From: an uncultured Planctomycetaceae bacterium
GTDB taxonomy: Bacteria > Planctomycetota > Planctomycetia > Planctomycetales > Planctomycetaceae
Length of the DNA: 64,000 bases
Reading direction: 5' to 3'
Assembly: GCA_963976765.1 (NCBI GenBank)
Contig: CAXBME010000008.1
Coordinates: 62,001-126,000 of the forward strand
Part shown: one piece after another, positions 5,047 to 48,900 of the stretch
Layout of the letters: the number at the start of each line of letters is the position of its first letter
How positions within the stretch are numbered: the stretch's first letter is position 1
Notes under the pieces: model-generated
The model's input: only the letters and a program-made list of their open reading frames with translations
Told to the model about the DNA's origin: nothing
The model's database searches: none
Made by a program: the position numbers and the translations under genes

Positions 5047-5246
5047 CAGAGGGGCACTCCCGGAATGGTTTCGGCAGGACTGACGAAGCGATACTCGCCG
5101 AGGATGGGCGAGTTGCAGGAACGGCATGTTGGCATGCGTTCGTCGGCCTCGCCAGTCAACATCGAACTCTCAACTCTCAGGATTGCAACTGAGTTGTCGC
5201 ATTCGCAGAATCAGTCGTTCTTCATTCTTCGAAGCAGGATGTCGCC

Positions 5247-6113
5247 GTGAGTGTTGCCGACACATTTGAGATCGACGAACGCCGCGTTGAAAAATCGGCA
5301 TGGCTGCAGCATTGGGACTGGTTCTTTGTGCTGAGCGTGGCGTGGCTGTTGTTCGACCTGTTCATGCAGCCGGTTTTGAGCATCTGCATTGCATCGTTCA
5401 AGTTTGGGTGGAGCGACTTTTCAAATGGCTTCTGGCTGTGGCGGAAAGACTCGGATCGCCGCCGAGGTCGAACATGTCTGGTCTTTTATGTCGCGACCGG
5501 GCTGTGGCGAATCACCGTAACTACATTTGCCGTGACGTTGCTTGGCCTGCTGGTTTACGGCTTCTGGCTGGCAATGAATCCTCAGCAGCAAGCCGCCAAT
5601 CGCAACCAGGGAAACGACATCCTGACTGGCGTTTCGATGATGATTGTGATGTTCTGCTTTGTGTTCTCGTCGCTGTCGACATGGCTGGCGATTTCGATGG
5701 GGCTCCGGAATCGAGTTCGAGTCTGGATTGATTCAAGCATTCGATATTCAAGACGAAACCGAATCTGGCCGCCAGAATCGTTGGGAAACAACCAGGTCAG
5801 CCGAGTGGTCACCAGCTCACTGATTTTCCTGGTGACTGCTTTGTTTGTCGGAGTGATCTCGATTCTGGCGTCACAGGCGGGGCGAGCTGCTCAGCCAATT
5901 CCGCCACTGCTGTTTGGCGTGGTCTTCGTTTCGACTTTGATTGGCTGCGCGGTACTCCTGCTGGCCGGGCGAAGCTGGCTGCTGAGAAAGCTTGCGGCGA
6001 CCTCGCCTGCCGACTGCTGGGCGGAAAATTCGCTGCGGCGAGGGCGGGTGTCACTGTCTGAAGAGTTGTTCGAGGATCGGAATTCTGGACGAGACTTCCT
6101 TTCAGACGCGTGA
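5247..6113 (+). CDS. Hypothetical integral membrane protein (about 5-6 hydrophobic segments)
   Basis: 288-aa ORF with a GTG start and several long hydrophobic stretches separated by Arg-rich loops. No family recognised. Confidence 0.7.
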   Translation: MSVADTFEIDERRVEKSAWLQHWDWFFVLSVAWLLFDLFMQPVLSICIASFKFGWSDFSNGFWLWRKDSDRRRGRTCLVFYVATGLWRITVTTFAVTLLGLLVYGFWLAMNPQQQAANRNQGNDILTGVSMMIVMFCFVFSSLSTWLAISMGLRNRVRVWIDSSIRYSRRNRIWPPESLGNNQVSRVVTSSLIFLVTALFVGVISILASQAGRAAQPIPPLLFGVVFVSTLIGCAVLLLAGRSWLLRKLAATSPADCWAENSLRRGRVSLSEELFEDRNSGRDFLSDA

Positions 6114-24900: not shown

Positions 24901-27900
24901 CGACGCTCCGGACTCCACGGAGCGCGGACATCGTTACTCTGGCTGCGGCAGTCGGACCGACGAGCGGTTTGAACGCTCTGGAAGTCCGAGGCACCAGTGC
25001 GGGGACTGGGTTTGAAACCTTTTATGCCAGCGACGTCGCTCGTGTCACGGTTGATCTGGCGACGGCAGATAATGCTGGAATGCCGGTCGATACAGTCGTC
25101 ATTGAAGATGGCGCACTCGCCGCGAACGAAGGGCTCGCTCTGAATGGTTTGACGATTCAGACTGGAATTGGTCGCGACGTCATTAACCTTCAGGAAGACA
25201 GCTACCTGACCTTCGGCGGTGAGGACGCACTGGTAATTGACGCCGGTGGGAACACTGACCGGCTGAATGTGAATGTCAGCGCGGCAACGGCACAGATCGA
25301 TCAGATCACGCTAACCAATGACAACCTTGGACTGACGGTTGCAGGAGTATCGGCAGGGGTTGTCAGTTTCCTCTCTCCGGTCAGTGGATTATCGACTCTG
25401 GGCGGCGAAGAAGTTTCGTTGACCGGTCAATCCGGGGCAGGTCTGGACAACATCTTTGATCTCAGCGGCTGGACAGCAGGTACGGCCACTGTCGATGGCG
25501 GGACCAGTACCGACGATACGATCATCGGGCCGGATGTTGATTCACTCTGGGATGTGACCGGTTCGAATTCGGGAGCACTCAATGGCAGCAGCATCAGTTG
25601 GATCGATGTTGAAAATCTGACCGGCGGCTCGGGAGATGATTTGTTCGTGTTGTCGACCGGTGTGACGGTCGCAGGATCTATCGACGGTGCTCGGGCAGGC
25701 GTACTGGGCGGCGTAGACTCCATAGACTTGTCGAATCAGGCAGGTGCTCAGTCGATCGTGTTGACCTCTGTGGTCGACGTGAACGGTTATGGTGGGACCG
25801 TCGCCGCAGTCGCGGGTGGGTTTGCTGATCTCAACGGCATCACCGGAACGATTGCCAGCGACTCGCTGACCAACGCGATTCTCGACGGCGGCAGCAATCC
25901 GGTCGCGGGAACGTTCACCCTCAATTCGAACGCTGGCGTCTTCCAGACTGGTACTGTTGCGGTCAACAATGTGAATGTCACCTTTACGAATCAGGTGGCA
26001 GCGGCGGACACAATTCTGCGTGCCAGTGGCAGTTGGCTCGCCGATGGATTTGCCAGCGGCAATGTCATCACCGTGACAGGATCGGCCAGCAACGATGGCA
26101 ACTTCACCATCGCCAGCGTCACAGCAACAACGCTCACGCTGGTCGCAACCGATACGCTGGTCAATGAAACTGGAGTGGTTGTGGATGTCGCGAGAGTCCA
26201 GACGCCATTCTCTTACAGCGATATCGAAGCGTTTACAGCCGGAAATGCGGGTGACACGTTTAATATTAACGCCGATCAGATTCCAACAACGCTGACCGGG
26301 GGCACTGGAAACGACACGTTTAATCTCAGTGCTGGTGTCGTTGTTAATGGTCCGATCAACGCCGGTGATGGCGACGACACAGTTGTGTTGAACGATGGCG
26401 CACGACTCCAGGCGGGTCAGAACATTGACTTTGGCGCCGGAAGTGACACTCTCAGCTTTGGTGGCGGCGGCAGCGTGATTTCGACCGGAAGTTACTCAAC
26501 CGCTCGCAACGTCGTGTTCAGTACATTGAATTCAGTCGATGGCGGCTACGACGGCAGTGAAACACAGCTGGGCTTCTCATTCAGCAGTGCCGATGCAGTG
26601 AATGGTGGCTCGTCCGGTAACGACACACTGCAAGGTGCCGCAAACCTGGACGCCAACTGGACAATCAACGGTGTCGATCCTCCACCACCGCCGACATTCA
26701 GCTTTGTATTCGTCGTTGACGCTTCCGGGAGTACCAGCCTTGGGTTTGCCGGAACGCCGGTGGGTGATATCAACAATGACGGTTTCGTCGATTCGATCCT
26801 CGATGCGGAACTGGCATCTCTGCTGTCGTTGCGGGATCAACTGGCCGCCAACGGTGAAGTTGCCACGCTCTCACTGGTCGCTTTTGGCACCAACTCGTCG
26901 ATCATCGATATGGATCCGTCGACCCCGGGTGTGCTGGACTTTTCAACATCTGTGACGGCGGACAATGACGGCAATGGTATTCCGGATTTTGAAGACGCTG
27001 TCCGTTCGATCGCGTTCCTTGGAAACACATTCTTCGAGTTTCCATTGCAGGATGCGATCTCCATCTTCAATGCGGTACCAGCCGACAATCAGACGCTGGT
27101 GTTCATGTCGGACGGAGCTCCACAGGATGCGCCACCATTCGTACCGACAGCGTTGTACACGGATGAAGTTGCAACGTTAAACGCACAGGGTGTGACATCA
27201 CGGGCGTTTGGTGTTGGAGCGGGAGCGACTCTGGCTTCGCTTCAGATCATCGATCCGACAGCGGTTATCGTTACCACCGCAGATGAACTGGCAGCTCAAC
27301 TGTCTGGGTTCGGTGGCGGTGTTCCTGCAACGCCCAGTGTGAGTATCTACCGCGATTCAGCCGCGACTCAGATTCTGACCTGGAGTGATTTCGAATATCT
27401 GCAAGGGGCGAATCAGTCGGACGTCTTCCAGTTCGGAGACTTCGTCCCGGACGGCGTGCCGACAGTCACTATTGCTGGCGGCGCGGGTGTCGATCAGCTC
27501 ATCGGTAATGATCAGCAGACCGACTTCCTCGTCAATCTGACCAATGGTGGCAGTATCACGTTGCGTGATCCGAACGGTGGCGACGCCACCGCGTCGCAGT
27601 TTCTGAACATCGAAAACCTGACAGGTGGGGCGGTCGGTGACACGTTCACCTTTACTAATACAGGCAGTCTGACCGGCGAGATTGACGGCGCTGGTGGCGT
27701 GGACACACTGACTGGCGACAATGACGGAAACGTCTTCAACGTCGTTCCTCTGGCTGTGAATCCGGTTGCTTCCAATCAGGGAACCTTTGGAAATACAGGG
27801 TCTGTGGTTTCCACAGGTGTGAACGTCACGTTCGCTGATGCCAACCCCGATACCATCACACGCGCAGCCGGTAACTGGACGACCGATGGCTTTAATGTCG

Positions 27901-30900
27901 GGCAGACGATTGCGGTTTCCGGTTCGACCAGTAACGACGGTGTTTACAGGATCGGTGCGATTTCTGGCGATGGTTTGACCATCACTCTGCTGGCCGGAGA
28001 CACGCTGGTCGCCGAAGCTGGAGCAACCGTAACTGTTGTCAGCAATCCGAAAGCCGTTGAAGGCTTCCGTAATATCGAAAACCTGGTCGGTGGTGATGCA
28101 CAGGATATCTTCAATGTAACCGGTGGTAATCTGACTGGGTCTATTGTCGGGGGAGGGGAAGTAGACACCATCACGATCGGAGCTGGTCGCACGGTGGGAG
28201 ATTCTGTTTCGGGTGGAGCTGGGGCTGACAGTGTCATTCTTCAGAATGGGGCACGAGTCACTAACGGCATCTTTGGGGATGCCGGAAACGATCGGTTTGA
28301 AATCGCGAATGGTGCTACGGTCACCAGTAGCCTGACTGGTGGCACGGAAGACGACCTGTTCATCTTCGGAACGGGAGCAATCCTGATTGGTACGATCGCC
28401 GGTGGCGGGGATGCTGGTGATACTATTGACGGCGGCAACACCGGAACGCTCTACCGCATCACTGCACCGAATGCCGGTGTTCTTAATGGTCGCATGAGCG
28501 GTTTCAATGGCATCCGAAACCTGGTGGGTGGTACCAGTGCCGACACATTCCGCTTTGAATCGACTGGAAGTCTCAACGGATCGATTACCGGCGGGGCCGG
28601 GGATGACAGTCTGCAAACCAGTGATGCTGCCGATCAGTTGACTTTGACAGGAGTCAATCTGGGCAATTCTCTGGTCAATACCGTCACAACGACCTTCGAT
28701 TCACTTGAGAACATCGATCTGCGAGGTAGCGACGACACGATCAACGTTAACGATGGAGCCGGTCTCAGTGGTACCTTGAGTGGTGGCACGGGCAATGACG
28801 TTCTGAATGGGCCAGCCAGCGGCGCGATCTTTAACGTGACGTCTGACAATTCCGGCGAGCTGCGGAACGCTTCCGGGACAGCCGAATTGCTGGGAATTGG
28901 TACGGCAACTCCAGGTTTCTCCAGTACTCCAGGTTTCTCCAGTATTGAAAATCTCAACGGTGGAGCAGGCAACGACATCTTCAACGTTGGAGACTTTGCA
29001 CTGGGTAATCCCGTCACGCTCGCCGGCAACATTGATGGCGGTGGCGGAAGCAACGTGCTGAACCTCGCGCCAAGAGCATCGATCGGCGGAACCGTTCAGA
29101 ATGTCAATGTTACGATCGTGGTTGGTACGAGTTCGGGGATCGTCGCCGGCAACGCCAACGATGACATTCTTGTGCAGATCGCAGGTGGCGAACTCGAAGT
29201 GGTCGTCAATGGTTCGTCTAACCGGTTCTTTGTCCCGACGACGACTGGTCTGAATGTGGTGATGAACATCCTGTCGCAGGGTGGCGCTGACAGTTTGACA
29301 GTCGATTACAGCACTGAATCCGGCAGCGCCGTCCTACCGGGAGAAATTAACTTCAACACGACGGATGGAAATGATCGCGTTCGACTGATCGGAAACGTCG
29401 GGCGGACCGCGACGTATGAACCGGTTCTCGTGAATGGACAGCGGGAAATTCGAATCAGCAATGGCGTCACCGATCGACTGGTACACCTTCAGCAGGCTGC
29501 GGTTCGGCCTCAGATTGAATTCGACACATTCGACTCATTCAACTTCACCAGCCCTGGTGCGGTGGATATCGTCAATCTGTCAGCTGCGGTGGCGCCTTTG
29601 GGAGGTATTCAGGCGTTGCAGGTCGCAGGAAGCAGCGATGCTGTCGATTTTGCGACGCTGTTGCTAAGCCGTGTGGCTGACGTGACTCTTGATCTTGGTA
29701 TTAACGACACGGCTTTTACAGGTTCGGCTGATACGGTGACGTTGAATGCAGGTGCGTTGCGCAGCTATGCGGGTCTGACTGGCGTGAGTGTTTCGACGGG
29801 TGATGGTGTTGACACGCTGACTTTGAATGAGACGAGTTACCAGAACCTTGCGAACGCTGACGTGCTGACTGTTGATCTGGGTGACGGTGCGGACTCTGTG
29901 ATTGCCGCAGCGTCAGGTGACTTCACCCTGGTGAACGGTGCGACGAACGGGAGCCTGACTCTCAACAACGGGGTGAACACCGGCACGGTGGTGTTGAACA
30001 ACTTTGTGACGGACGGTCGTGGTGAAGCGGCTTCGCTGACCGGAGCGGCTGGTAATGACTCGTTCAATCTGAGTGGTCATAACGGCGCCGTCACTGTGAA
30101 CGGCGGCGGGGGCACTGACTCTCTGACGGGACAGTCTGCGTCGGATGTGACGTGGAACTTCACGAACGCGACGACGGGAACAGCGGTTGATGATGCGAAC
30201 CCGGCCGGCACGGTGACGTTCAACCTGATCGAAGAATTCATCGGGAGCACCGGTAACGACACGTTCGTGCTGGGTGCCGGGGTGGCAGCGGCCATCGCTT
30301 CGATCGACGGCGGCACGGGTAATAACACGCTGGACCTGACGGCAGCGGGAGCCAATCAGACGGTGACGCTGACGGCTGTCGGCACGAGCGGAGTAGGTTT
30401 TGCAGGCAACGCGACCGGAGCCGGCGCGTTTGCGATTACAGCTTTCGACAATGTCACCAATGTGCTGGCCAACGGTGCGAATCTTAACACACTGACGGGT
30501 GCGAATCTGAATTCGGCCTGGACGATCGACGGCACGGTCGGCACGGTGGCGACGACAGCCGGGCCGGTACGGAATCTGTCGTTCAGCAACTTCGTGATGC
30601 TCAACGGCGGGACGGAAAACGATTCGTTCGTGGTGATTGACGACTCGACGGCAGCCATTAACACCGACACGGCGATCGGCGGTTCGGGCAGTGACAGCGT
30701 AACAGTCAACGCCGGCCAGACCCTGACCATCCTCATCCCTCTCGCCTTCGGCGAAGGCGATGACGTACTGACCCTCGCGAACGGAGCAACGCTGACCGGT
30801 GCTGGTGTCAACCTGGGCGACGGCAACAACGTCGTCAATCTTGGAACCGGTGCTGTCGTCAACGGAGCAATTACTGGCGGGATTGGTACGGACAGCGTGA

Positions 30901-33900
30901 CACTGGGCACCAATGCCAACGTCACGGGCAACATCACTGGCGGTGCGGGTGCAGACAGTGTGGTGCTGGGTGATGGTGCGACTGTCGGCGGACAGGTTCA
31001 GGGCGGCACCGGTGCTGATACTCTGAGCTTCGCCGGTTACACGACGGCTCGTACTGTCACGACGACGGCGGCGGTGGTCGGCAACGGCTTCACGGGAACG
31101 GAAGCTGCCGTCACCGGTGGCTTCACTGGTATTGATGCTGTGGTCGGTTCGCTGGCCACGACGGACGTTCTGACGAGCACGATCGCTGGCAACGCGTTGT
31201 GGCTGCTGGACACGAATAACGTACTTCAGGAACTCACGACGAATCAGCAGTTGACATTCAGTGCGGTGGAACGGCTTAACGGCGTTGCAGGCAACGACAC
31301 GTTCCGCTTCGGTGCGGGCGTGACCGAATCGTTCACACTGACGGGCAACGGCGGGACCAACGTCGTCGACGGCAGCCTCGGCGATGATACGTTTGCAATT
31401 AACGCGTTGAATGCCGGTACGGTCACCGTCAACGGTCGCACGAGTTCGTTTACAAGCGTGACGGCTCTGAATGGCGGGGATGGTGCGGACAGCTTCAGTT
31501 TCGGTACCAGCGGTACGTTGAACGGAGCGATTGACGGCGGTCTGGGAGCGGACACGCTGACTGGTCCATCGACCGGTGCTGTGTTCACGGTGACGGCATC
31601 CAATGCGGGGACGCTGACTGATCGAGCCGCGAATCCGCTGCTGAGTACTGGCGGCGGCAATGGATTCACCAATGTTGAAAACCTGGCAGGCGGTGCCGGG
31701 CAGGACATCTTCACGGTGACGGCTGTCGGCGCTGCTCTGACGGGAGGCATCTCGGCCGGTGGAGAAGCGGACACGATCACGATTTCCCGTAGTGTCGCTG
31801 GTCTGGTAGACGGTGGTACGGGGAACGACGTGATCGCTCTGCAGGGTGGGGCAACTCTGACGGGGGGCGTTGCTGGTGGAGCCGGCAATGATGCGATCAG
31901 TGTCTCGGGAACTGTGGCTGGTAACCTGGACGGTGGTGCCGACAACGACACCTTCACGCTGGCAGCAGCAGCGATTTTGAACGGTGTGATCACCGGCGGC
32001 ACGGGCAATGACCTGATCGACGGCGGTAACACGTCGACGGTCTTCCGGATTACCGGTGTGAACAGTGGCCTGCTCGATGGTCGAGTCGACGGGTTCAACG
32101 GCGTAGAAAGTCTCGCCGGCGGAAACGCAGCAGACACGTTCCGCTTCGAAGGGACCGGTACTCTTGCCGGTACGATCAACGGCGGCACGGGGGCGGGCGA
32201 TGTGATCGAAGGTCTGGACGGCGGCGTCGACAGTGTGACTCTGACCGGTGCTGATTCCGGGACGGCGTCGTTCGCGGCGACCGGTTTCTCGGATGTGGAA
32301 TCTCTTGATCTGCGGGCGGGTGCGGACAGCGTAACTCTGACCGATGGTTCGAGCCTTTCGGGTACTCTGGGCGGTGGTTCAGGAGCGGACAGGCTGATCG
32401 GACCGGACACTCCGGCCACGTTCACAGTCACTGGTCCAGATGCTGGTAATGTGACTGGCGGGGCAGCCATTCCGAACTTTACCTCGTTCGAAAACCTGAC
32501 CGGTGGTTCCGACGACGACACCTTCAATGTAAACGCCAACCTGACGGGTGCACTGGACGGTGGTCCGGGTAACGACACGCTGAACCTGGCGGCTGGAACG
32601 TCCATCGGCAGTGTCAGCAATGTCGAAAACGTGAACCTGATCGCCAACGGCACCGACGCGAATGACCAGATCGTCATCCGTAACAACGGCGGCATTCTGG
32701 AAGCGGTGATCAACGGAGCGGTCAGCCAGTTCTTCACACCGGCAGGTGCGTTGAACATCTCGCTGACGGTCAACGGATTCAACGGGACGGACACGCTGAC
32801 GCTGGATTACTCAAGCGGTGCTCTGCCTGATGAAATCACCTTCGCCGACCGCCTGACGACCGGCGGCGGTGCCGAAGGAAATGCCGAGCGGGTTCGCATC
32901 ATCGGTGGCGGTACCGAAGACGTGGACATCTCCGACACACTCGACGCCAATGGTCGCCGCGTGGTGACCGTCACTGATGGTGGTGTGAGCCAGACCGCGC
33001 TGATCGAAATCGGTGCGTTGTACGAACTGGAATCACTGAGCAGCGTAACGCTGACCAGTCCCGGCCAGGCGGATGCCGTGACAGTGAGCGCTCTGACGAC
33101 GAGCACAATCAGCTCGCAGACGGCCATGCTGATCACGGAAGCCGCCAACAACTTCGAGCGTCTGGAACTGATTGGCGTGGCGACGATTGATCTTGATCTT
33201 GGTATTAACGACACGGCTTTTACAGGTTCGGCTGATACGGTGACGTTGAATGCAGGTGCGTTGCGCAGCTATGCGGGTCTGACTGGCGTGAGTGTTTCGA
33301 CGGGTGATGGTGTTGACACGCTGACTTTGAATGAGACGAGTTACCAGAACCTTGCGAACGCTGACGTGCTGACTGTTGATCTGGGTGACGGTGCGGACTC
33401 TGTGATTGCCGCAGCGTCAGGTGACTTCACCCTGGTGAACGGTGCGACGAACGGGAGCCTGACTCTCAACAACGGGGTGAACACCGGCACGGTGGTGTTG
33501 AACAACTTTGTGACGGACGGTCGTGGTGAAGCGGCTTCGCTGACCGGAGCGGCTGGTAATGACTCGTTCAATCTGAGTGGTCATAACGGCGCCGTCACTG
33601 TGAACGGCGGCGGGGGCACTGACTCTCTGACGGGACAGTCTGCGTCGGATGTGACGTGGAACTTCACGAACGCGACGACGGGAACAGCGGTTGATGATGC
33701 GAACCCGGCCGGCACGGTGACGTTCAACCTGATCGAAGAATTCATCGGGAGCACCGGTAACGACACGTTCGTGCTGGGTGCCGGGGTGGCAGCGGCCATC
33801 GCTTCGATCGACGGCGGCACGGGTAATAACACGCTGGACCTGACGGCAGCGGGAGCCAATCAGACGGTGACGCTGACGGCTGTCGGCACGAGCGGAGTAG

Positions 33901-36900
33901 GTTTTGCAGGCAACGCGACCGGAGCCGGCGCGTTTGCGATTACAGCTTTCGACAATGTCACCAATGTGCTGGCCAACGGTGCGAATCTTAACACACTGAC
34001 GGGTGCGAATCTGAATTCGGCCTGGACGATCGACGGCACGGTCGGCACGGTGGCGACGACAGCCGGGCCGGTACGGAATCTGTCGTTCAGCAACTTCGTG
34101 ATGCTCAACGGCGGGACGGAAAACGATTCGTTCGTGGTGATTGACGACTCGACGGCAGCCATTAACACCGACACGGCGATCGGCGGTTCGGGCAGCGACA
34201 GCGTAACAGTCAACGCCGGCCAGACCCTGACCATCCTCATCCCCCTCGCCTTCGGCGAAGGCGATGACGTACTGACCCTGGGTGACGATGCCTTCCTGAT
34301 CGGTGGTAATGTGACTCTGGGGGCTGGTGCTGATCAGGTGACTCTTGGAACAGGGGCGATGATTGCTGGAAACGTCGTCGGTGGAGCTGGCAATGACCGA
34401 CTGACACTGGGGCGGTTCGCGTCAGTGGGTGGAACTTTCGATGGCGGTGCTGATGTCGACACTGTTGATTACTCGGCGATTTCGAGCAATCTGACACTCA
34501 CCCTGACTGGTCTTTCAGGAACTCCAACCGATGGTTTCACCGCAACGGACGGTGGAGTGACCGGTGGACTTCTGGGTATTGATGCTCTGATTGGCGGAGC
34601 TGCCACGGATACTCTGGTCGGACAAAGCACCAGCAACGCTCGATGGACAGTCGGCGCGACTGGTCTCTATCGAGAATTGAGTGCAAACCTTGAAACGGTC
34701 GACTTCTCTGGTTTCGAACGTCTGCAGGGGGGAGCAACTGGTGATGACTTCCGTCTGAGTTCGACCGCCGCTGGTGTTACCAGTATCAACGGTGGAACCG
34801 GAGTCGACAGTATCGAAGGCAGCACGCTGGCTGATACGTTCAACATTACAAGTCTGGATGCCGGGAACGTAACTCTTGATTCGGCAACACCGGGAGCAAC
34901 GATCACCTTCCAGTCAGTTGAAGCTCTCAGCGGCAACGCGGGTAATGACCGATTCGTACTCGGGCTGAATGGTCGCGTTTCGAATGCGATTGACGGTGGT
35001 GCTGATATTGACACCGTGGCAGCGCCAAATCTGGCCAACGCTTTCGTCGTCAACGGGAACAACGCTGGAACTCTGACCAACACGACGGGTGTCGTCGGAT
35101 TCAACAATGTTGAAAGCCTTGAAGGCAACAGCAACGTCGACACGTTCACGATCAATGCGGGGTTCACGCTGGGTGGCAATATTTCAGCCGGAGCAGCCTC
35201 TGACGTTGTCACGCTGCAGGCAGGCGCTGTCGTGACCGGCAACATTTCGCTGGGCGACAACGATGACACCATGACCTTGAATGCGGGGTCGCAGGTTGGC
35301 GGAGCCGTTACCGGCGGTGCAGGTAACGACACCTTCACGCTGACTGGTGCTGGAACCGTTGCCGTGTCGTCGATTGACGGCGAAGCAGGTACTGACCGGT
35401 TCAATCTGGTGAACGCGGTGAATGTTACCGGCACGCTCACTGGTGGAGCGGGCGTTGACACTCTGACGACTGACGGCACGCTGGCGACGACGTTTGTGAT
35501 CGATCAGCTGAACAGTGGGACTCTCAGTAACCGTGGTGGTGCTCGTTTCTCAACGATTGAAGACATCCGGGCGGGCAACGGTGTTGCCGATACCTTCCAG
35601 TTTGAAACAGGCGGATCGCTGGACCAGGCCACACTCAATGGCGGCACGGGAGCAGGCGACTCGCTGATTGGAACGAATTCCGCCGATCAGTTCCTGATCA
35701 ACGGAGTGGACTCCGGTTCGGCCACCATTGGGGCAACGACAACGAACTTCGTTGACATTGAATCGCTCGGTGGTCGTCGTGGAAATGATACCTTCGCGTT
35801 TACGTCGACTGGTTTCCTGACTGGAGTTCTCGACGGCGGCAATGACAGTGACGTGCTGATTGGTTCTGACAACGGCGATGTGTTTGTGGTTTCGAATCCG
35901 AATGCCGGCAATCTGTTTGACGGACCAGGTCAGACGAATCGTCGAACCGGAACAGGACTGGGCGTCGCAGCTGACGGGTTTACGAGCATCGAGAATCTGA
36001 CTGGCGGCAACGGTGATGACAGCTTCATCGTCAACGCCGATCTCGATGGAAACGTTGACGGCGGCGCCGGCAATAACACGTTGATGCTGAATCTTGGTAA
36101 CGCTTCAATTGGCGGCACCGTTTCCAACGTCAATGTCACGGCGTCTGTCACGGGAGCCGCCGGCGATGACACGATCATCGTTCGACGTAATGCTCAGAAC
36201 CAGATCGAGGTTGTTCACACCAACGCAACCAGCGTTATCAATACGACCAGTACACTGTTTGTGCCGGCTGCTCAGCTTGGCGTCAGTCTGATTGTAGATG
36301 TGTCTGGTTCCAACGGTAACGACCTGCTGGTTGTTGACTATTCGGCAGGGACGCTGCCGATCGATATTACCTACACCGGCGACGGTACGAATGATCGTCT
36401 CCAGGTGATCGGTTCGAATGCCGAAGTTGTTACCTACACGCCGAATTCCGCTGTCGCCGGAAGCGGCATCGTTGACGTCGATGGCAATGTGCTGACTGTT
36501 GCCGGGCTCGAGGCACTTGCTCCGAGCGTTGCGTCCATTGAATTGAGCGATCTGGCCAGCGTTGCACTGGTGACACCAAACAGTGCCGACAACGTCACGC
36601 TTGATACCGTGCCGGCAGCCGTTACCGGTCAGCAGTCGTTGCAGATTTCAGGGACGAGTGGTGCAGTCACGTTCAATGCCGTATCGCTGGTCAACGTGCC
36701 GACGGTAACGATCGACATGGCGACGGAAGACGAAGCAGGCAGCTCGGCTGACACCTTCACGCTGGCTGCTGGCGCATCGCTGTCGGCGTACGCTTCTCTG
36801 GCGAACGTGCTTGTTCAGACAGGTGCCGGTGCCGACACCGTAACGCTGCTGGGCAATAGCTTCGAAACCATCGCGGGCAACAGTGTTCTCAACATTGATG

Positions 36901-39900
36901 CCGGTGCCGATGACGATCTGCTTCAGGTGACAACGGATCGATCTCTTTTGGATCTCACGTCGACGGGGGTTTCGCTGGGTACGACTGTTTCTGCGGACCT
37001 CGGTACTGTCAGCTTTGTGAATGGCAGTCTGAGCGGTGAACGAGCCAGCCTGACGGGTGGAGCTGGCAACGGTGACACGACGTTCAATCTGAGTGGCTGG
37101 CAGAACGGTACCAACGCGACGGCAACTGTTTCCGGCAATGGAGGAGATGACACACTTGTTGGACCAACAGCCGCGAACGTTACCTGGAACATTACGAGCA
37201 ACAACGCGGGCACGGTTGACACGTTTACGTTTGCAGGGATCAATAATCTGCAAGGGGCAGACGGGACAAACGATGCGTTCGTCTTCTCGGACGGTGTGGC
37301 GATTTCCGGCTCGATTATCGGCGGGACGGGCATCGACAGTCTGGACTTCAGCAGTGTCACGACGGCTCGGAATGTTGCTCTGACATCTGCCAGTGGTGAC
37401 GGTACTGAATCATCTGTTGGTGGCGGATTCAGCTCGATCGAGCGATTCGTTGGCGGTTCGGCAGTTGACACTTTTGCCGGTGCCAATACGGCCGCAGCAT
37501 GGGTGCTTAACTCGGCTGGCAGCACCTATCAGACACTTCAGTTTACGAGTTTTGAAACTCTGATCGGTGGATTGAGCGTCGACACGTTTGCCGTCACCAA
37601 CGACGTTACTGCCAGTATTCAGTCAGGTGCCGGTGCAGACAGCGTGACGTTGAACCCTGGAGCGACTCTGACGGGGTCGGTCAATACGGCTGATGGCAAC
37701 GACACGGTGACAGTGAATGTTGGCGGGCAGATCACTGGTGGGGTTTCAACAGGAAATGACAACGACTCTTTGATTCTGAGAGACGGTGCCAGCATTGGTG
37801 GCGTTTTCGCCGGTGGAGCCGGTTCGGACACGCTGAGTTTCTCTGGCTATCAATCGGCTCGAAACGTGACACTGACGGCAGCCAATGCGGGCGGTGGATT
37901 CGACGGAACTGAAGCCGCAGTTGTCGGCGGGTTCACGAGTGTGAACGTTCTGACTGGCGGCGGTACTGCCGCGACGGACGTTCTTCAGGGACTCGCCACC
38001 AGTGCAGCTACCTGGACCATCGACACGACCAGCACTTACCAGGATTCGGCCAGCAGTAACACGCTGAACTTCTCGCAGTTCGACGACCTTCGAGGTAGCT
38101 CGGCAGCGGATACATTCCAGCTTGGAGCAGCACCGCCGCAGGTTTCGATTACGGGTGGAGCAGGGGCCGACCAACTCATCGCCAGTTCGGCGGGTAGCGA
38201 TTTCACGATTTCTCTGATTGATCGAGGTTCTGTTGGTACCGGTGGGGTCGTCAGCACGTTCAGCGGAATCGGAACGTTGATCGGTAACGCTGGAAACGAC
38301 TCGTTTACATTCCTCAATTCTGGGTCTCTCAGCGGCCTGATTAATGGAGCAGGCGGCAACGACACAATTACTGGCGACAATGACGGAAACACCTTCAACG
38401 TCACCGCTTCGAATGCTGGTACGCTGACAGGAAAAATTGCCGGTGGATTCCAGAATGTCGAGAATCTGAACGGCGGTGATCTGGATGATGTCTTCGATAT
38501 TGATGCTGGCCTGACAGGCAACATCAACGCTGGCGGCGGTTCCGATTCAATTGACGTTGCTAACAATGTTTCGATCGATGGCAGCATCACGACAGGCTCG
38601 CAGTCCGACGTTGTGACGTTCGGAGACCTTGTGACAGTTCTTGGTTTGACTGACACCGGAGCCGGGAACGACGTCGTCAATATCAACGGCCGGCTGACGG
38701 GGAACGTTGCTACCGGAAGTGAGAACGATCAGATCAATCTCGCCGCCACAGGAGTGGTTACGGGGACGCTTTCCGGTGGAAGTGGTGCCGATACTCTCAG
38801 TGGCGGAAACGTTGCGACTACCTACATCGTGAATGCGGTAGACGGTGGCTCCGTTGCAGGGCGAGTTACATCCTTCGACGGCATTGAGAATCTGGTTGGC
38901 GGAACTCAGGCTGATAACTTCCAGTTCCAGAATGGCGGAACGTTGACCAACGGGTCGATCGATGGTGGTGCCGGGGCCGGTGACCGGTTGCAGGGTGACC
39001 TGACCGCAAACGACTTTGTCATCAGTGGAACCAACTCAGGCACTTATGACGACGTGAGTCCGACCAGCGGTCTGGTCTCATTCACCGGGATCGAGTCACT
39101 CGATGGACGCAGTGGAGCTGACCGGTTCACCTTTACCACGGCGGGAGTTCTTGACGGCCAGCTTCAGGGCGGTGCAGGTCTCGATGAGCTGATCGGATCA
39201 GCGAACGGCGACTTCTTCCACGTGACCGCTCCGAATGCCGGAATTCTGTATGACGGTCCGGGAACGACGGATGCCCGAACGATTGGTGGCTTTGTCAGTA
39301 TCGAAAGCCTGACAGGCGGCATTGGGAATGACACATTCGACGTCGATGCAAATCTGACTGGCAATCTGCTGGGCGGGGGAGGAGACGACACCTTCCTGGT
39401 CGATGGAAATGTCGGTGGCAATCTGGACGGTGGAGCCGGTAGCAACTCACTCACCCTCGGGGCTGGAGCATCCATTGCTGGTAACGTTTCCAACGTGACC
39501 GTGACGCTGGATATCAATGCTCCGGCTGCCGATGCTGTTCCGGACGAAATTGAGCTTCGGCTGAACAGCTCAACGGGCGCATTGGAAGCGATCATTAATG
39601 GCACTCTCAGTTCGTTCTTTGTGCCGAACGGCCTTGACCTGACCATCAACGTGACGCCGTCGACAGACGATCTGTTCCTGACGATTAATAATGAAAACGG
39701 TGGTCTGATCAACGGGACCATCAACTACGACGGCGGCACGGGCGATGATGATTTGCGAGTCATCGGTAGCGGCTCGCCATCTGAAATTGCTCAATACAAC
39801 GCGAATCTGGCTGTGAATGCTGCGGGTTCGATCCTGATTACCGATGCGACTTTTGGTCGGTCGCAGACCGTGACATTTGACGATGCTGGCCCGGTCGATA

Positions 39901-42900
39901 TCTGGAATCTGACGGCACTGACCTTCGTCACGCCAGAGTCGAACGATGTTGTGACGCTCTCTGCGGGGACGGACGCGCATCAGGGAGTCCAATCCGCACT
40001 TGTGATCTCCGGCAGCAGCGGTGGGACGATGTTCCAGCCAGTTCACCTGCGGGACATCACGAGTCTTGAACTCGATCTGGCGGCCAATGATGGTGTCAAT
40101 GCTGACGACCAGGTGACAGTCAATGATGGTTCGCTGGTCGCCAACCAGGCACTGGCAGAACTGACAATCAGCACCGGCGAAGGTGTCGATACCTTTGACA
40201 TTCAGGAAGACGACTACACACTGCCTGGCCAGCCTCCTGTGCCGCCTGTTTCGACATTGCCGATTATTACCATCGACGACGTCTCTGTGGCAGAGGGTGA
40301 TGGCGGTCTGTTTGACTCAGCTCAAAGCACGTTTGTGTTTGGTGGATTTGGCTTCAGTAGCACCCAGGAGTTCGTAACAGGGAATTTCAACCCAGTCACG
40401 GACCAATTTACAGACATGGTTGCGGTCGCGAATTTTGGGACCGTTGCTCCAAGCGTACTACTCAGTAATGGACCAGCGAGAACATTCACTGCTGGGCCCG
40501 CAATACCGTTTTCTCCGCCGCAGAATGGGTTCTTTGAAGTCGCGGTAGGGGATATCGATGGTGATGGCGACGATGACATCATCGTGCTTGATACTGGTGC
40601 TGACCAGATTACTGTGTTGACGAATACGGATGGTCAGGCCAACTTCGCGGTAGTAGGCACGATCAGTGGTGGTGCCGGAGTGAGCGACATTCAATTGGCA
40701 GATGTTGATGGCGTGAACGGATTGGACATCGTCGTCAGTAATAGCCTTACGGGCGCCATTCAGGTCTATAGAAATGTGGGCGGTGGAGGCTTCAATGGTA
40801 CGCCAGTTACGACTGCCGGGCTTGTTAATGCAAACAATACCGAATTCAAGTTTGCTGATTTGAATGGAGACTTCGCTCCAGATTTGATTTTTCTTGATGG
40901 TGGAAGTGGGAACAGTATTCTGACCGTAATGCTGAACCGCGGTGACGGTTCAGGTAGCTTTGACCCGTTTCGTCAGATCAGCGTCGGCACCTTCGTGCAG
41001 GATGTCGAGGTAGCAGATGTTGATAACGATGGTGACCAGGACATTCTCGTTATCGATAGCGGTGCCGCGAATGATCCAGTTGTGATAATCGAGAACGATC
41101 TCGCCGGTACGGCAATGGATCTTGTTCTACGAGGGCCTGTTGACACAAACGGCCTGTTTTCCAACACATTGGCTGTCGGCGATCTTAATGGAGATGGGAA
41201 TGTCGACATTGTCACGGGCGATTTCGCGACTTCGGCGGAGGTTCGTGTTCTATTGGGGAATGGTGATCTTACGTTCCAGAACGTTCTGGTGTTCGGGACA
41301 GCAGGAAATCTTGACGGTGATCTTCTGCAGATCGCTGACTTCGATGGTGACTCGCGACTTGATCTCGCTGTCGTGGATGCGAATGGAAGTGGTACTGTCT
41401 TCTTCAACTCCGGTGTACCGGATGCCGTTGTAACTCTCACACTGTCTGCGCCGGATCTGACGAACCCGGTCACGGTCGACGTGGCGTTGACGGATGGCCT
41501 GGCCGCGGGTGGAGTCGATTACGAAAACGTTCTGACGACTCCCGTCGTGTTTGCTCCAGGGCAGACGACGGTCCAGATTTCGATTCCGATGATTGGCGAC
41601 ACACTGGTCGAAGGTAATGAGAACTTCTTCGTCAATCTCTCCAACGCGGTGAATGCGGTTATCGGTGATGCCCAGGGGCAAGTCACGATTCTTGAAGATG
41701 ATGGTGGCCTTGCTGGCCCGACCGTCGAGATTGACGATGTGACGTTCAACGGTGAGGGAGACGCTGGAACCGCCACCGCCACTGTCACGGTTCGGCTGGT
41801 TGGTGGACCGGCTGCGACGGACATTACTGTTGACTACAGCTTCCAGGATCAGACGGCTCGAGCAGGATTCGACTATGTGGCTGCACCGGGCAGTGTGCAG
41901 ATTCCAGCGGGTGCGACATCGGCCACGTTTACTGTTGATATCATTGGCGACCTGATTAACGAACAGAACGAGACGTTCCTGATTAACATCGCTCAGTCGA
42001 CTCCAGGCGAATTTGGCGTCATTTCAAGAAGTCAGGCGACGGTCACCATTTCGGCGAATGACAGCGCTATTCCAATTCTTGGTGGTGGCCTGACGTTTGA
42101 CGGCGGAGCGGGGCAGGATGTGCTTCGAGTTACCAGCGATGCGGGGCTGATTGAACTCGATGCAACTCCCGGTGCATCTGAAGTCCGACTCGGGACGGTT
42201 GGCTCATCCGGTGCTCAGGGAACCTTGAACCTCGAAAATCTTGCCGGTGAAGTGCTGTTTGTGACCGGTGGAGCGAGTAACAACACGATCGATCTGAGCC
42301 TCTGGACGAGCAACGCCACCGGGACGATCGATGGTCTTGGTGGTGTTGACACGCTGGTTGGTCCAACAGCGACACAGGTCACCTGGGATATTGCCGGGGC
42401 CGCCGCAGGAACCGTCGAGAACTTCGGCTACTCAAACGTCGAGAACCTGCAAGGGACGGCTGGCTCGAACGATCGATTCATCTTTGATCCAGCGGTCACC
42501 GTAGCGGGATCGATCAGTGGCGGTCTGGGTGGAAACGATCAGATCAACTACAGCTCATTTGGTGCCCCGGTCAATGTGATTCTCACGGGTGCAAACGGCA
42601 CCGGCACAGAAGCTGGGTCGATCGCCAATGGGTTCACCGGGATTGAAAACTTCATCGGGACTGGCGGAGGCGACTCGTTTACTGGTCGTAACGTTGCCTC
42701 GACATGGACGATCAGTGCCTCGACCAGTACGTACTCTGCGGGTGGAGCCGTCACGTTCCGCGACTTTGCGTCCGTCAACGGTGGGTCCGCTGCGGATGAC
42801 TTCAGTATTCAGACTGACGTGACTCTTAATGTTTCAACGGGCGACGGTACAAACACTGTCACGGTGGCTAACGATCGAACGCTGACGGGTGACATTACTG

Positions 42901-45900
42901 GTGGTGCGGATTCCGACACGGTGACGTTGAATTCTGGTGCTTCCGTAGCCGGCTCGATCTCGACAGCTGCCGGCAACGACAGGTTGCAGCTTGGCAATGG
43001 TGCTGACATTACTGGTAGTTTTGCCGCCGGTGCCGGAATCGACGCTTTGAGCTTTTCCGGTTACACAACCGCTCGTGATGTTGCGATAACGGCTGTTAAC
43101 GCGACTGACGGATTCGACGGAACTGAAGTTTCTATTGGCGGTGGGTTTACGTCGGTGAACAGCCTTACGGGAAGTGCCAGCGGCAGCGATGCACTGCAGG
43201 GGCTGGCGACGACCGCTGCCGTCTGGACCATCGCTTCGAATGGTAGCTACAACGCTGGCGGTGAAGTTCTGGCGATCAGCTCGTTCGAGGACTTGACTGG
43301 CAGCAGTGCCGACGACCGTTTCCAGTTTGGAAGCTTCGGTATTGGAGCGGTTCCTCAAGTTACCGTTTCAGCCGGTGCGGGTAATGACCAGCTTGTTGCA
43401 AACGTTAGTGGCTCAGACTTCCTCGTTACCGCAGCCGATGCTGGAACCGTGACCGTACGCAACTCAGCGGCGATTCCGGCGACAGCGGTCAGCCAGTTCT
43501 TCAGTGTCGAATCACTGGTGGGGAACTCGGGCAACGATCGATTTGAATTCCTGAATTCGGGGTCGTTGACAGGTTCGATCGACGGAAACGTCGGCAACGA
43601 CACACTGGTTGGCGACTCCGACGGGAATATCTTCACCGTCACGTCAGAAGACGCCGGAACGCTGGCAGGAAAAGTTGCCGGTGGTTTTGTTGAAATTGAG
43701 AATCTGGCGGGCGGGCTGGCCTCTGACACGTTCAACGTCAATGCCGACCTGAATGGTGGCATCAGTGGATTTGCCGGCGAGGACGTTGTTGTGGTTGCGG
43801 ACGGCGTCACGATCGCGGGGGCAATTGATACAGGGTCGGCAGCCGACCAGTTGACCTTCGGAAATAATACTGTCATTGGCGGAGCGGTCACCGGAGGTGC
43901 TGGTGCTGATACTCTGACGATTCAGGGAGCAATTACAGCGACTATCGGCGGTGGAACTGGCAACGATCTTTTCGTTCTTGGAACAGCTGCAAGTGTTACA
44001 GGAACTCTCGACGGTGGGGCTGGTGTTGACGAAATCCTGGCGTCCAGTAACGCGACGACTTTTGTCATCAACGCTGTTGATTCCGGTGCTGTGACGGGGC
44101 AGGTTGACGCCTTTATCAATGTCGAGAATCTGACTGGCGGTGCCGGTAACGACGTCTTCCAGTTCGAAACGGGCGGTCGCCTGACGGCTGGAGTCGTCAA
44201 TGGTGGTGCCGGTACTGACACGCTGGACGGTGACCTGAACTCCAATAACTTTGTTATCTCCGGTACCGATTCGGGAACCTATGACTCCGACCAGGCAACG
44301 GGTGGTGAGGTTGTTTTCCTCAATGTCGAATCCCTCGACGGACGTAGCGGAAACGATCGGTTCCGATTCACAAGCCTTGGAGTTCTGACTGACGTGCTTC
44401 TGGGTGGTGCCGGTCTGGATGAACTGGTTGCGTCGAACAACGGGGACGTGTTCCACGTTACTGCGACGAATGCTGGTACGCTTTACGATGGACCAGGTCT
44501 TACGAATCCACGAACCGTCAATGGGTTCCTGAGCGTCGAAAATCTGACTGGCGGCGATGGCGAAGACACATTCGATATTGATGCCGACGTCTTTGGCAAT
44601 CTGATCGGCGGCGGCGGAAACGACACGTTTACAGTCGATGGGAATGTTGGGGGAGATTTGGACGGCGGAGCCGGCACTAACACGCTGACTCTTGGGGCCG
44701 GTGCATCGATCGCCGGAAACGTTTCGAATGTCAACGTCACTCAGACTGTAAACGCTCCGGAAGATGGCTCACCGGACGTCATTGAACTTCGTCTGAACGG
44801 CAGTACCGGAGCTTTGGAAGCCGTCGTTAACGGAGTTGTCAGCTCGTTCTTCGTTCCGACGAATCTTGACTTGACGATTCAGGTGCCTGCTACGACTGAC
44901 GACGTATTCCTGACAATTAACAACGCCAACGGTGGCCTGATCGATGCGGATATCGTGTTCTCAGGTGGGGCGGGTGATGACGATCTGAGTGTTATCGGCA
45001 GCGGCTCTCCTGCCGAGAATGCTGTTTACACCCCAAGCAGTTCTCTGAATGCAGCTGGGTTGGTCGAGATTGAGAACTTCTCGACCGGTATCACACAAAC
45101 GATCACATTTGAAGATGCTGGTCCGGTTGATTTTGCCAATGTGGCACGGCTGACGTTCGTGACACCGGCTTCAAATGACGTGGTCGATCTTTCCGCCGGG
45201 CTGGATGCTCACTTCAACACTCAGAACGCATTGGTCATTTCCGGGCTCAGCGGTGGGACCGCTTTCGCAGCGGCTCACATCCGCAGCACGATCAGCGTGG
45301 CAGTTGACCTGGCGACCAATGATGGGGTTTCGCCAAATGATGTCGTGAACATTAACGATGGCGCGCTGCAGGCCAACTCTGATCTGGCTGAACTGAGCGT
45401 CAGCACGGGGAACGGAACGGACACCTTTAACGTGTCTGAAGATGATTACCTTCTGCCGGGCGCTGCTGCAGCGACCGTGTCGACCTCGACTCTTCCAGAG
45501 TTGACAATCACAGATGTCACCACACGTGAAGGTGATCCGATCACCTTTGAAACCGGGACGAACATCACTGGTGTCGGCGGATTCTTTCCTCAGGATATGG
45601 TTGAATTCGACTTCGATGGCGACAATGACATTGACCTGGCAACCATCGATCTGGCCAACGGATTCGTGACGATTCTTGTTAATACTGGGAATGGCAACTT
45701 TGTCGCATCGACCTCGGGCGGGATCAGTACGACCAGACCGACAAACCTTGCAGCGGGCGATTTCGACAACGACGGACGCGATGATCTGGCGATTTTCGAT
45801 GACGTCTTCGACACGGTTGAGATCCTGAGAAGTTTCGCTTTCACTCGGGATAATCCGTTCTTCATCCAGACCAGTTTCCAGACGATCACCTACCCCACGA

Positions 45901-48900
45901 CCGGATTCGCTCCTGCGTTCTCGGGAGTGCAGGCCGTCGACATTGATAACGACAACGATATTGATCTTGTGTTGTCGAACGACGCTGGATCCGGGTTTGG
46001 CGGTGGTCACATCACTGTGATTCGAAACAGTCTTGAGCTCGGGATTGGATTTGGGGGGGCGGTCTTCCAGACCAACGGTGAAGCCTTCAGTACTCTCTCG
46101 ACCAGAGCCCAGGACCTGGTGCTAGATGATTTTGATGGGGATGGCTCTCCGGATGTTGTTGTGATTTCCGATGTGAACCGGACCGGCTTCACATTCATGG
46201 CGAATTCTGGAGTCGGGACTTTCGGGTCCAGCTTGTTCACGCCTTCGGTAGCTGGCTTGAATGCTGTGACATCTGGTGACGTCAATGGTGATGGTCGGCC
46301 AGATGTGATTCTGCTGAGCGACAGTTCAATCCTTGTTTTCGAAAATCTTGGGGGAACCGTTCCAGCGTTCGCGGCCGGGGCTGTGATTGCAACGGGTGGT
46401 TTTGCCGGCGTGGATGTCGTGACCGGAGACTTCAATGACGACGGAAACCTCGATATTGCAGCCACTGACTCGAATAACAGCGAAGACGTCATTGTGTCGT
46501 TCGGAAATGGCGCTGGCGCATTCGGATCAGCTCAGTTGTTTGCGACAGGGCTGGTCACCAGTTTCCAGGGAGCGGCTCTGGTCACTGCTGACTTCAATAA
46601 CGATGGGCTGGTTGATCTCGCTCAATACAGCGACTCTACCGGAAATGGGGCTGTGAGTATTTTGACAAATACTTCTGCGGCTACGGCACTGCTTACCGTT
46701 TCGCTGTCGTCTGTTGCGACTCAACCCGTGTCGTTCAACTACTCGCTGTCAGATGGACTTGCGACGGGGTTAAACGACTTTAATAGCAGTGTCTCCAATC
46801 CAGTGACGATTCCAGTCGGGCAGTCGTCCGTCACCATCGCCATACCAATCTCAGGTGACCTGAATGTGGAGTCGGACGAGAACTTCTTTGTGAATCTATC
46901 GAGTCCGGTGAATGCCGTGATCGCCGATGGTCAAGGGCAGGTCACCATTCAGGACGACGATGGTTTTGCTGGTGCCGGGCCTCGAATCAATATCGGGGCA
47001 GCGTTCACATTCACAGAAGGAGACTCGGGAGTCACGACAGTGTCTGTGCCTCTGACGCTGAGCGCCGCTCAGGCTACAGATGTGACGGTGGATTTTGTGA
47101 CTCGTGCTGTCACGGCTCAAGCCGGTGTTGACTACATTGATACGGCAGGAACCGTGACGTTTACTGCGGGGAGCACCACCGCCAACATCCTGATTGACAT
47201 CGTCGGTGACCTGGTGAACGAAGGTGCTGAAACGTTCCTGATCAACCTGCTCAATTCAACGGATGTGGTTCTCGCAAACACTCAGTCGTTGGTCACGATT
47301 GACGTCAGTGATTCTAACGTCCCGGTCTTTAATAACGGTTTGCGCCTCGACGGCGGTATCGGCACCGACCGAATCATTGTGACAGCTGATGTTGGGCTGA
47401 TTGAGCTTGATGCGACGACAGGTGCAGAGCAGATCAGACTGGGGACTGTTGGCGTTCCAGGTTCACTTGGTCGTGCTAACCTGCTCAATCTTGCCGGAGA
47501 GGACGTGACTGTCCTTGGGGGAGCGGCTGACAACATTATTGATCTGAGTCTGTGGAGTAACGGTGCCCGAGCGACTGTGGACGGTCGTGGTGGCGACGAC
47601 ACATTTGTCGGATTGGATGTCAGCAGCGATTGGACAATCACCGGAACAAATGCGGGGCAGGTCGGCGACTTCACATTCCTTGACGTCGAAAATCTGGTCG
47701 GCGGTGCTGCCGACGATGACTTCATCTTTAATGGCGGATTTGTCACCGGGTCCGTCAATGGAGGCGCGGGAGGGATTAACACGCTGACGGTGGGTAATAC
47801 CGAAAACGCCTGGACATTCGAGCGGATTGCCGGCGGTAGCGTTCGGTTGGGCCCGATTGTGACCGATCCATTGCTGAACTTTGACAATTTGCAACTGGTC
47901 AATGGCGGCACAAACGTCGATACGTTCACCTTTGCCGGTGGCTCAATTGCCAGCCTCGCAGGTGGAACGGGTGAAGATGTGGTAACCGGCGACAACCTCG
48001 CGAATACATGGCGTGTTCGAGACGTCAACGGTGACTCACTGACGGTTGATGAAGGTACCTTGACGTCTGCGTTGGGAATTACAGTGTTCTCCGGCATCGA
48101 GAATCTGGTCGGGGGTAATTTGGTTGACACATTTGTGTACGACCGCGACTCACGAATTTCCAGAACGATTGACGGGGGTGCCGGTGCGGCGAACATTCTG
48201 GACTTGAGTGGTTACGTCACCTCTCTCACGACGACTTTGACCAGCATTGGAAGCACCACCGGTTTTGCGGGTACTACACAGGGAATGTTCAAGCCGGTTG
48301 GTGACACGTTCGACAATATAACAGCCATCAACTTCAGTACGCAGAACGCAACGATTGGTGACAACCTGATCGGTTTGAACTCGACGGCTCAGTGGAACTT
48401 TGGGGCATCCACTTACACGACTGCCGGGCGAACTCTGAACTTCACTCTGGGAGCTACTGATGATGTGACCGGCGGAAGTTCGACTGATACTTTCAGTTTT
48501 GTGGGTGCAGCAGCCTCAGCAATCCGAAATGTCAACGGAGCCGGCGGTGCGGATACGATTACTGGTAATAATGTTGCGACGAGCTGGGCAATCAGTGGAA
48601 GTAATTCAGGTAGCTTCCAGCCGGGAATTTCTGCGATCGGCGGTTTCAGTAACATTGAGAATGTTGTCGGTGGCAGCGCAGTCGATACATTCACCTTTAC
48701 AAACAGCGGGCGACTCGATGGCACCATTGATGGTGGAGCCGGGATGGACTTTATCGTCGGTGATGCCGACGGTGTTCAGATTACTGTTACGGCTGGGCTG
48801 AATGATTCCGGTGTGATCCTCGAACAGGATGGCGCGACGGTTAAAGTGGTCAATGGGTTCTCAAGTGTCGAGAATCTTACAGGTGCCGGAGCGAGCGACG

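Follow-up and report, generated by a model that had tools for sequence, protein, structure and literature searches.

The locus examined here raises the question of whether an integrin-type propeller in a planctomycete giant protein stands in line with its neighbouring domains or is nested inside them, and what such an arrangement may serve. The window analysed is the whole 64,000-nucleotide stretch of a contig from an uncultured Planctomycetaceae bacterium, whose genome (G000) comprises 8.57 Mb in 95 contigs. A neighbouring aminotransferase falls in a 90% cluster with entries labelled Planctomycetota or Planctomycetaceae. An earlier note on this DNA had proposed three-level nesting, with an FG-GAP propeller inside a Calx-beta domain inside a scaffold (stalk) repeat. 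All of the sequence strings that it quoted were found where it had placed them, in frame with the ORF 6822-58691. The features considered here are as follows.

6822-58691, +: giant ORF of 17,289 aa, a single uninterrupted frame, with a basic N-terminus, a long predicted beta-roll stalk and C-terminal RTX repeats
25149-25260, +: uninterrupted stalk motif from the earlier note
36399-37331, +: reference uninterrupted stalk unit; the insertion site corresponds to the loop at ~36852-36887, between two rungs of one predicted beta-solenoid
40161-40217, +: stalk rung ahead of the cassette, made up of two strands with a Gly/Asp turn (stalk HMM; model strands E123-127 and E133-137)
40218-40253, +: Pro-rich entry linker, 12 aa (pLDDT <50 at model residues 142-154)
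40254-40301, +: first strand (A/A') of Calx-beta 1, orphaned from its domain, in which the Asp at 40278 and the Glu at 40293 are invariant
40302-41414, +: seven-bladed FG-GAP/VCBS propeller, its Asp-rich loops canonical in six blades and degenerate in one
41415-41702, +: remainder of Calx-beta 1, strands B-G, with acidic calcium-site residues (Pfam 54 bits, cut-off 27)
41703-41717, +: Gly-rich five-residue linker joining Calx-beta 1 to Calx-beta 2
41718-42062, +: Calx-beta 2, intact (Pfam 62.4 bits; custom profile positions 1-110)
42063-42131, +: 9-aa return linker and next stalk rung (stalk HMM)
45393-47375, +: second copy of the complete nested cassette, overall 40% identical to copy 1 (propeller 27%)
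45489-45536, 45537-46676, 46677-46961 and onward to 47312, +: first strand, propeller, rest of the Calx-beta and second Calx-beta of copy 2

Setting of the giant ORF

Pfam annotation of the whole giant protein was sparse, consisting of one cadherin match, two FG-GAP blocks, four Calx-beta domains and the C-terminal RTX repeats (PF00353; 225 bits, 15 stretches within the last 2,089 aa). The N-terminus carries what we take to be a planctomycete-type export-like motif; the first 80 aa gave no match to the planctomycete motif PF07595, which matched a paralogue in the same genome (C2) weakly (E 0.0015). For type I secretion, no matches above the family cut-offs were recorded in G000 for TIGR01843 (0/18) or TIGR03375 (0/79), and weaker ABC/adaptor pairs exist. 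The N-terminal 1,000-2,000 aa gave no Pfam or NCBIfam match of the retention-module kind. A different genus of the same family (G016) has a counterpart of 16,341 aa that contains both cassettes and, within the 20 kb covered, five uninterrupted units. Because both cassettes recur there, the nested layout is not an assembly artefact.

Other characteristics of the protein and its surroundings were also noted. The genome contains 10 open frames >3,000 aa, the largest being 17,310 and 11,832 aa. The segments 29673-30775 and 33177-34279 are internal duplicates over 1,105 bp with 99.5% identity, either of recent origin or a repeat sensitive to assembly. In its N-terminal part, the giant protein holds a metzincin-type HExxHxxGxxH motif at 10560-10592 (Peptidase_M10 E 0.00015, below cut-off). 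A domain of ~85 aa, belonging to no Pfam family, forms a tandem of four near the N-terminus (~16920-17950) and recurs as two single copies in the stalk (~25950-26200 and ~27790-28050). A VWA-like domain at ~26680-27330, with a MIDAS-like motif at 26718, is inserted in another stalk motif by way of a poly-Pro linker, and its Pfam VWA match reached only E 0.0014. The neighbouring genes encode an LRR and Laminin-G-like protein (5-2293, +) and a protein with an SGL propeller and an FG-GAP propeller (2824-5127, -).

Splitting of the first Calx-beta domain

The claim that a first Calx-beta strand is set apart from its domain by ~370 aa of FG-GAP sequence was confirmed, with seven blades lying between 40254-40301 and 41415-41702, and the next Calx-beta (41718-42062) was found to be uninterrupted, as had also been proposed. 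Pfam reported six FG-GAP_3 stretches within 40302-41420 and a Calx-beta match at 41421-41711 that begins at profile position 24 of 119. This late start was considered as proof of splitting and dropped because many intact domains among 55 genome matches also begin near position 20. Domain scanners misread the layout as a tandem of FG-GAP and then Calx-beta.

Excision tests were performed with two custom Calx-beta HMMs rather than Pfam's model, one built from 17 intact domains of the same genome and the other from 427 domains of other proteins; one false training row was taken out during this work. With both, a full-length match was obtained only after removal of 40302-41420, the outcome that the earlier note had taken as support for nesting. 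With this exact cut, the score rose from 83.8 (positions 15-111) to 96.7 bits (3-111) for the 17-domain HMM and from 90.1 (14-110) to 105.3 bits (1-110) for the 427-domain HMM. The best cut, from 40299/40302 to ~41405/41408, reached 108.4-108.6 bits (positions 3-111, 17-domain HMM), and when random 16-mers of the giant protein were put in place of the orphan strand, 0/3000 equalled this score. Copy 2 reached 97.5 bits after excision, again with 0/3000 random 16-mers as high. A first-strand matrix run over ~17,260 positions of the giant protein placed the two orphan strands at the top (30.2 and 22.1), followed by two intact Calx-beta domains (15.1 and 9.1) and then by a position scoring 5.2. 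In intact Calx-beta domains of this genome, the first strand normally lies a few residues ahead of strand B, and the segment at 40254-40301 shares its sequence pattern.

We modelled a 910-aa segment with AlphaFold2, using a 19-row alignment of naturally split homologues (mean pLDDT 75, pTM 0.53). In this model, strands 158-161 and 164-167 arise within the orphan segment and mirror 644-647 and 650-653 of the intact Calx-beta. Folding of the first strand in trans with the remainder of Calx-beta 1 gave a score of 0.55, compared with 0.01 for the best of three controls, a result rated weak by the tool; at least 86% of contacts agreed in these runs, and the partner pLDDT was 61-62. The pass mark of this assay was reached in calibration by 116/157 solved pairs and 2/215 mismatched pairs, although the range at or below 0.60 held only 18 of the 157 solved pairs but both mismatches. 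The pass may also reflect memory of solved folds, because the pair represents halves of the solved Calx-beta fold.

Such a score for direct pairing would also suit plain tandem domains, with the upstream strand a leftover and Calx-beta 1 folding without it. This arrangement is nevertheless highly improbable, as the Asp and Glu of the orphan strand are invariant in 19/19 rows (kin included, not independent rows) at 30-40% overall identity, native residues immediately 5' of the C-terminal Calx part bring nearly no gain in HMM score, and identical junctions hold unrelated guests elsewhere. We infer instead that the orphan first strand completes the Calx-beta 1 sandwich.

The downstream acidic residues of the Calx-beta 1 calcium site were invariant or nearly so in the 19 rows, and acidic residues of this domain can be aligned to the calcium ligands of NCX1 CBD1, given in PMC3386913 as E385, D446/447, E451 and D498-500. 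The Glu at 40293 would be the equivalent of E385, in an alignment that needs a one-residue gap. Conservation of the orphan Asp and Glu and of the downstream acids, together with their alignment to NCX1, points to one calcium site that would likely draw its ligands from both sides of the insert, joining the orphan-strand Glu to acidic residues 370-470 aa downstream. Sharing a site in this manner, calcium would latch Calx-beta 1 shut round its guest.

Interruption of the stalk repeat

The earlier note had further held that the Calx pair splits a scaffold motif that is contiguous elsewhere and is entered through a Pro-rich linker, and both statements stood, the linker being the 12 aa at 40218-40253. 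An HMM built from three uninterrupted stalk units matched over positions 4-125 in the stretch preceding each cassette and over 132-239 in the stretch following it; its halves joined upon excision into one match over 4-239 (141 bits for copy 1 and 134 bits for copy 2). The strand that follows the cassette had been equated with 'LTFGG'; this assignment was corrected, as it equals, in the intact unit, the rung 'LVIDAGG'. Of the nine uninterrupted units that were aligned, four lie in the window and five in G016, and at the insertion site they have a variable loop of 8-16 aa. Both levels of nesting are present as far as the sequence can tell, and we hold the nested architecture to be very likely.

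An uninterrupted unit was predicted as a single solenoid (pLDDT 84, pTM 0.85), with the insertion site in a 12-residue loop between rungs. Its best fold match was the CyaA RTX block, at a modest score (Z 9.0, rmsd 3.9 A, 167 residues). The stalk is predicted to be an RTX-like beta-roll that receives the cassette in an inter-rung loop. In the nested model, the stalk past the cassette (residues 783-893) had a pLDDT mostly near or <50, and closure of the stalk round the cassette was not modelled confidently for this reason.

This poorly modelled stretch would accord with an outer level that is a mere linker between two stalk domains, leaving the cassette in line with the fibre while the inner nesting is real. 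Two Calx-beta domains in line are, given the size of Ig-like domains, too long for loop closure unless they are bent. We consider an in-line cassette quite unlikely, however, since the uninterrupted unit forms one solenoid with its site in an inter-rung loop, the two stalk HMM halves adjoin at 125/132, and the linker between the Calx-beta domains is long and Gly-rich. This linker to the next Calx-beta had a median of 5 aa and 40% Gly (n=18, a count that includes kin) versus 2 aa and 9% Gly among 2,467 array linkers, and lengths of at least 5 aa were recorded in 12/18 versus 4.8%. The three linkers of one protein (P0013) are 2 aa long, and its split units lie in a linear Calx-beta array. As the entry and exit linkers (12 and 9 aa) are too short for two in-line sandwiches and the inter-Calx linker is long, a U-shaped arm fits, with the linker at 41703-41717 as its likely U-turn.

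Characteristics of the propeller guest

Residues 172-541 of the model (40305-41414) form a self-contained closed propeller of 28 strands, running from D7 and then from A1 to C7. It matches integrin alpha propellers (Z 33-34, rmsd ~2.5 A over ~340 residues at 10-16% identity; 3FCU, Z 34.1, rmsd 2.5 A, 339 residues), which also led a fold search over 48,161 chains, with other seven-bladed propellers next at Z 27-31. All of the top 50 matches listed cover the propeller and none the split sandwich. The propeller sequence gave no matches in the PDB at E 0.001. Asp-rich motifs of the DxDxDG type occupy loop AB at seven sites per copy, that of blade 1 in copy 1 being degenerate. The insert opens on strand D of blade 7 and closes on strand C of the same blade, and the predicted propeller is therefore tethered at its C-D loop, on the calcium-loop face; faces were assigned from general propeller topology and PMC8023676.

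Likening the assembly to integrins was justified for its parts, through the fold match, and failed for its layout, to which the split domains of RTX adhesins are a closer precedent. Like the integrin alpha head (alphaIIb, 3FCU/7LA4), the segment combines a predicted seven-bladed fold with Asp-rich calcium loops and with Ig-like sandwiches downstream. The integrin propeller is described in PMC3192720 as N-terminal and as the host of an inserted I domain, whereas here the propeller is itself a guest, housed by a Calx-beta domain in a giant protein of a bacterium and located at residue 11,161 of 17,289 rather than N-terminally with legs and an anchor. A true integrin-like receptor would be suggested by integrin alpha heads as the top fold matches and by the VWA-like insert with its MIDAS-like motif on the same chain (~26680-27330), with which the propeller would putatively pair as the integrin alpha propeller does with the beta-I domain. 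The structural alignments have only 10-16% identity, the propeller is internal and inserted, no need for a VWA partner was apparent in most cassette-bearing relatives, and bacterial VCBS propellers are treated in PMC8023676 as a large family of their own, which together make such a receptor extremely improbable.

The outward loops of the propeller were found to be variable (26% vs 58% column identity). In copy 1 they contain 10 aromatics in 83 residues and are rich in Phe, which makes up 4.5% of residues protein-wide; Phe-rich outward loops were noted in the giant-protein copies, and over the 19 rows the outward face had a slight excess of aromatics (8.6% vs 7.2%). The lower GC content of the propeller (50.5-52.5% vs ~56%) may be due to amino-acid composition. 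A mobile-element or DNA-repeat origin of the insert was considered and rejected, as only short, degenerate repeats were seen.

With the nesting taken as real, the propeller might be a structural or calcium-loading knob, acting as a spacer or in self-association or matrix cross-linking, rather than a specific ligand-binding tip. The propellers are strongly acidic (net -31 to -56), Trp is absent from 18/19 of them, and their conservation is centred on the calcium loops; PMC3192720 records bacterial integrin-type propellers and calls their function unknown. Propellers diverge faster than their hosts, however, the two copies being 27% identical in the propeller, 51% in the Calx part and 54-58% in the stalk, and the same socket elsewhere holds outward-acting modules, a GH5 hydrolase in one case and a VWA-like domain in another. 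We judge a purely structural role unlikely and the display of a binding domain probable.

Distribution and diversity of split Calx-beta domains

To characterize the spread of this arrangement, a two-part detector was applied to 3,506 C-terminal parts of Calx-beta domains from 150 representative proteins, 36 loci and G000, which represent top matches and not a census. A local first strand was lacking in 486 parts, and 27 rows had an orphan strand upstream, 26 of these at 348-384 aa. The final count, also 26, was reached by removing the duplicates L001 and L029 and the weak P0135 (50-aa gap) and by adding P0224 and a VWA case from G000; L007, L024, L036 and P0141, which look split but have no upstream part, were left out. 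Excision gave a full-length Calx-beta match in 26/26 candidates, and the random-16-mer null for these is lenient because the strands were first chosen as the best upstream match. The 26 splits lie mostly in the host's family, where the 19 propeller cassettes represent nine genomes with seven genus labels.

One propeller was the guest in 23 cases, four of them in P0013. The remaining guests were a stretch of 14 FG-GAP repeats (P0224, in a cluster labelled Planctomycetota), a GH5 hydrolase (L013 in G115; PF00150 E 5.8e-53) and a VWA-like domain in G000 (C22). The VWA-like case was the weakest of the 26, with a strand score of only 5.0; it failed with the first HMM and cut, 495/3000 nulls being as high. 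In shorter proteins, the cassette was mostly found between RTX runs. A propeller followed by an intact Calx-beta, un-nested, is the usual arrangement outside the split group (six proteins; L049 and L065), and nesting is therefore not required for the two to work jointly.

Additional variation was noted among the relatives. The proteins with GH5 guests (L013 in G115 and L036 in G021) also carry CBM2, and L036 GH18 as well. The 7,043-aa P0013 has four split Calx-beta and propeller units at ~2860-5380 inside its linear array, and in P0255 (~920-1290) an FG-GAP propeller appears by eye to lie at another Calx-beta site, just ahead of the last strand. In the G000 paralogues C2, C3, C7 and C22 (1,206-1,471 aa), RTX runs flank Calx-beta domains and a variable guest, which is nested in some and between or after the Calx domains in others.

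Among 29 non-own loci from a phylum-wide scan (118/301 genomes matched, three candidates scored each), three had Calx-beta and none was split. A named-genome scan (79 loci) and 118 further proteins gave 32 Calx-beta sequences with one further first-strand split, that of P0224. In the ESM Atlas, Calx-beta/FG-GAP clusters were present, one of them mostly Planctomycetota. A quick tree built from 19 nested propellers and 28 free ones required six label changes, which fits one origin or several, and the four giant-protein propellers grouped together (97).

Comparison with known systems

Split Ig-like domains that project ligand-binding domains, often after strand one, have been described in RTX adhesins, in which beta-rolls and vWFA domains are also hosts (PMC12077191; bioRxiv 10.1101/2025.09.30.679566). 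The latter source surveyed 35 RTX adhesins, and AhLap of Aeromonas hydrophila corresponds to PDB 9CSE. The resemblance lies in a guest that emerges from an Ig-like host past its first strand and in multi-level nesting, which in those adhesins is described as a beta-roll holding a vWFA domain that holds an insert. In contrast, the host here is a Calx-beta domain, its guest is a 370-aa propeller >3 times the host's size, a two-domain arm leaves a repeated beta-roll stalk in mid-protein, one enzyme is found among the guests, and profile searches brought up neither a retention module nor an array of Ig extenders. Although a C-terminal RTX beta-roll (PF00353) is shared with canonical RTX adhesins, only one cadherin match was found and the stalk unit is a predicted beta-roll; the giant protein is not classed as a canonical RTX adhesin. 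Neither 'Calx-beta' nor 'propeller' occurs in the main text of PMC12077191 or bioRxiv 10.1101/2025.09.30.679566. The literature search, exclusive of Graham et al. 2024 (Proteins 92:933) and the bioRxiv supplements, either of which could list a Calx-beta host, returned no split Calx-beta and no propeller guest. Nested insertion as such is reported as common in PMC13114784, where a mention of Calx or FG-GAP was looked for and not found, and PMC7616799 mentions Calx-beta in LapA only.

The Calx-beta pair itself resembles the CBD1-CBD2 tandem of NCX1 (3US9), which the intact domain matches at E 2e-11 and whose acidic calcium ligands are retained. Unlike NCX1, the first domain is split, the context is presumably extracellular, and the longer, Gly-rich linker suggests a U-turn. 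According to PMC3386913, calcium rigidifies the NCX1 tandem. Propellers are also borne by the secreted, calcium-linked adhesins BapP of Pseudoalteromonas tunicata, in which a propeller is combined with Calx-beta-like repeats (PMC12153261), and Bap1 of Vibrio cholerae, whose propeller is described as binding polysaccharide through a Trp cradle (bioRxiv 10.64898/2026.08.03.742583). Their propellers differ in having five and eight blades, respectively, and are not described as Calx-beta guests, and the Trp cradle has no counterpart in the nearly Trp-free propellers examined here.

Proposed arm and its significance

Taking these results together, we consider it probable that a propeller placed in a Calx-beta domain, itself part of a cassette placed in a stalk repeat, is displayed on a giant, likely secreted adhesin by a calcium-stiffened U-shaped arm. 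At sequence level, the propeller interrupts Calx-beta 1 directly after strand one, and the cassette interrupts the stalk repeat. The chain would leave the stalk via Calx-beta 1 and return via Calx-beta 2, with the predicted closed propeller, joined through its calcium-loop face, near the apex and its variable face held off the stalk. The propeller may then bind an extracellular target, whether a glycan, a protein or a hydrophobic surface. The earlier note's reading of a propeller presented on a sideways Ig-like arm is supported, the geometry and function of that arm being the inferred part.

A broader and more tentative possibility, which we would not yet favour, is that the split Calx-beta is the family's dedicated calcium-latched socket, combining a two-sided calcium site and a hairpin arm with interchangeable tips on giant beta-roll fibres. 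The tips would include one or two integrin-type propellers, a VWA domain and a glycoside hydrolase. If this is true, an orphan Calx-beta first strand would be a simple marker of the working domains in planctomycete giant proteins, which PMC11573180 describes as common and poorly understood. The layout points to the 2-4% of a 17,000-residue chain that likely touches the outside world. It also carries the rule for split domains beyond the adhesins of gammaproteobacteria, to a new host fold, a far larger guest and enzymes. The arm of ~600 aa, which is also found in proteins of ~1,400-1,700 aa, offers a tractable system for asking what bacterial integrin-type propellers bind, and the split Calx-beta may offer protein display a site where insertions are naturally tolerated.
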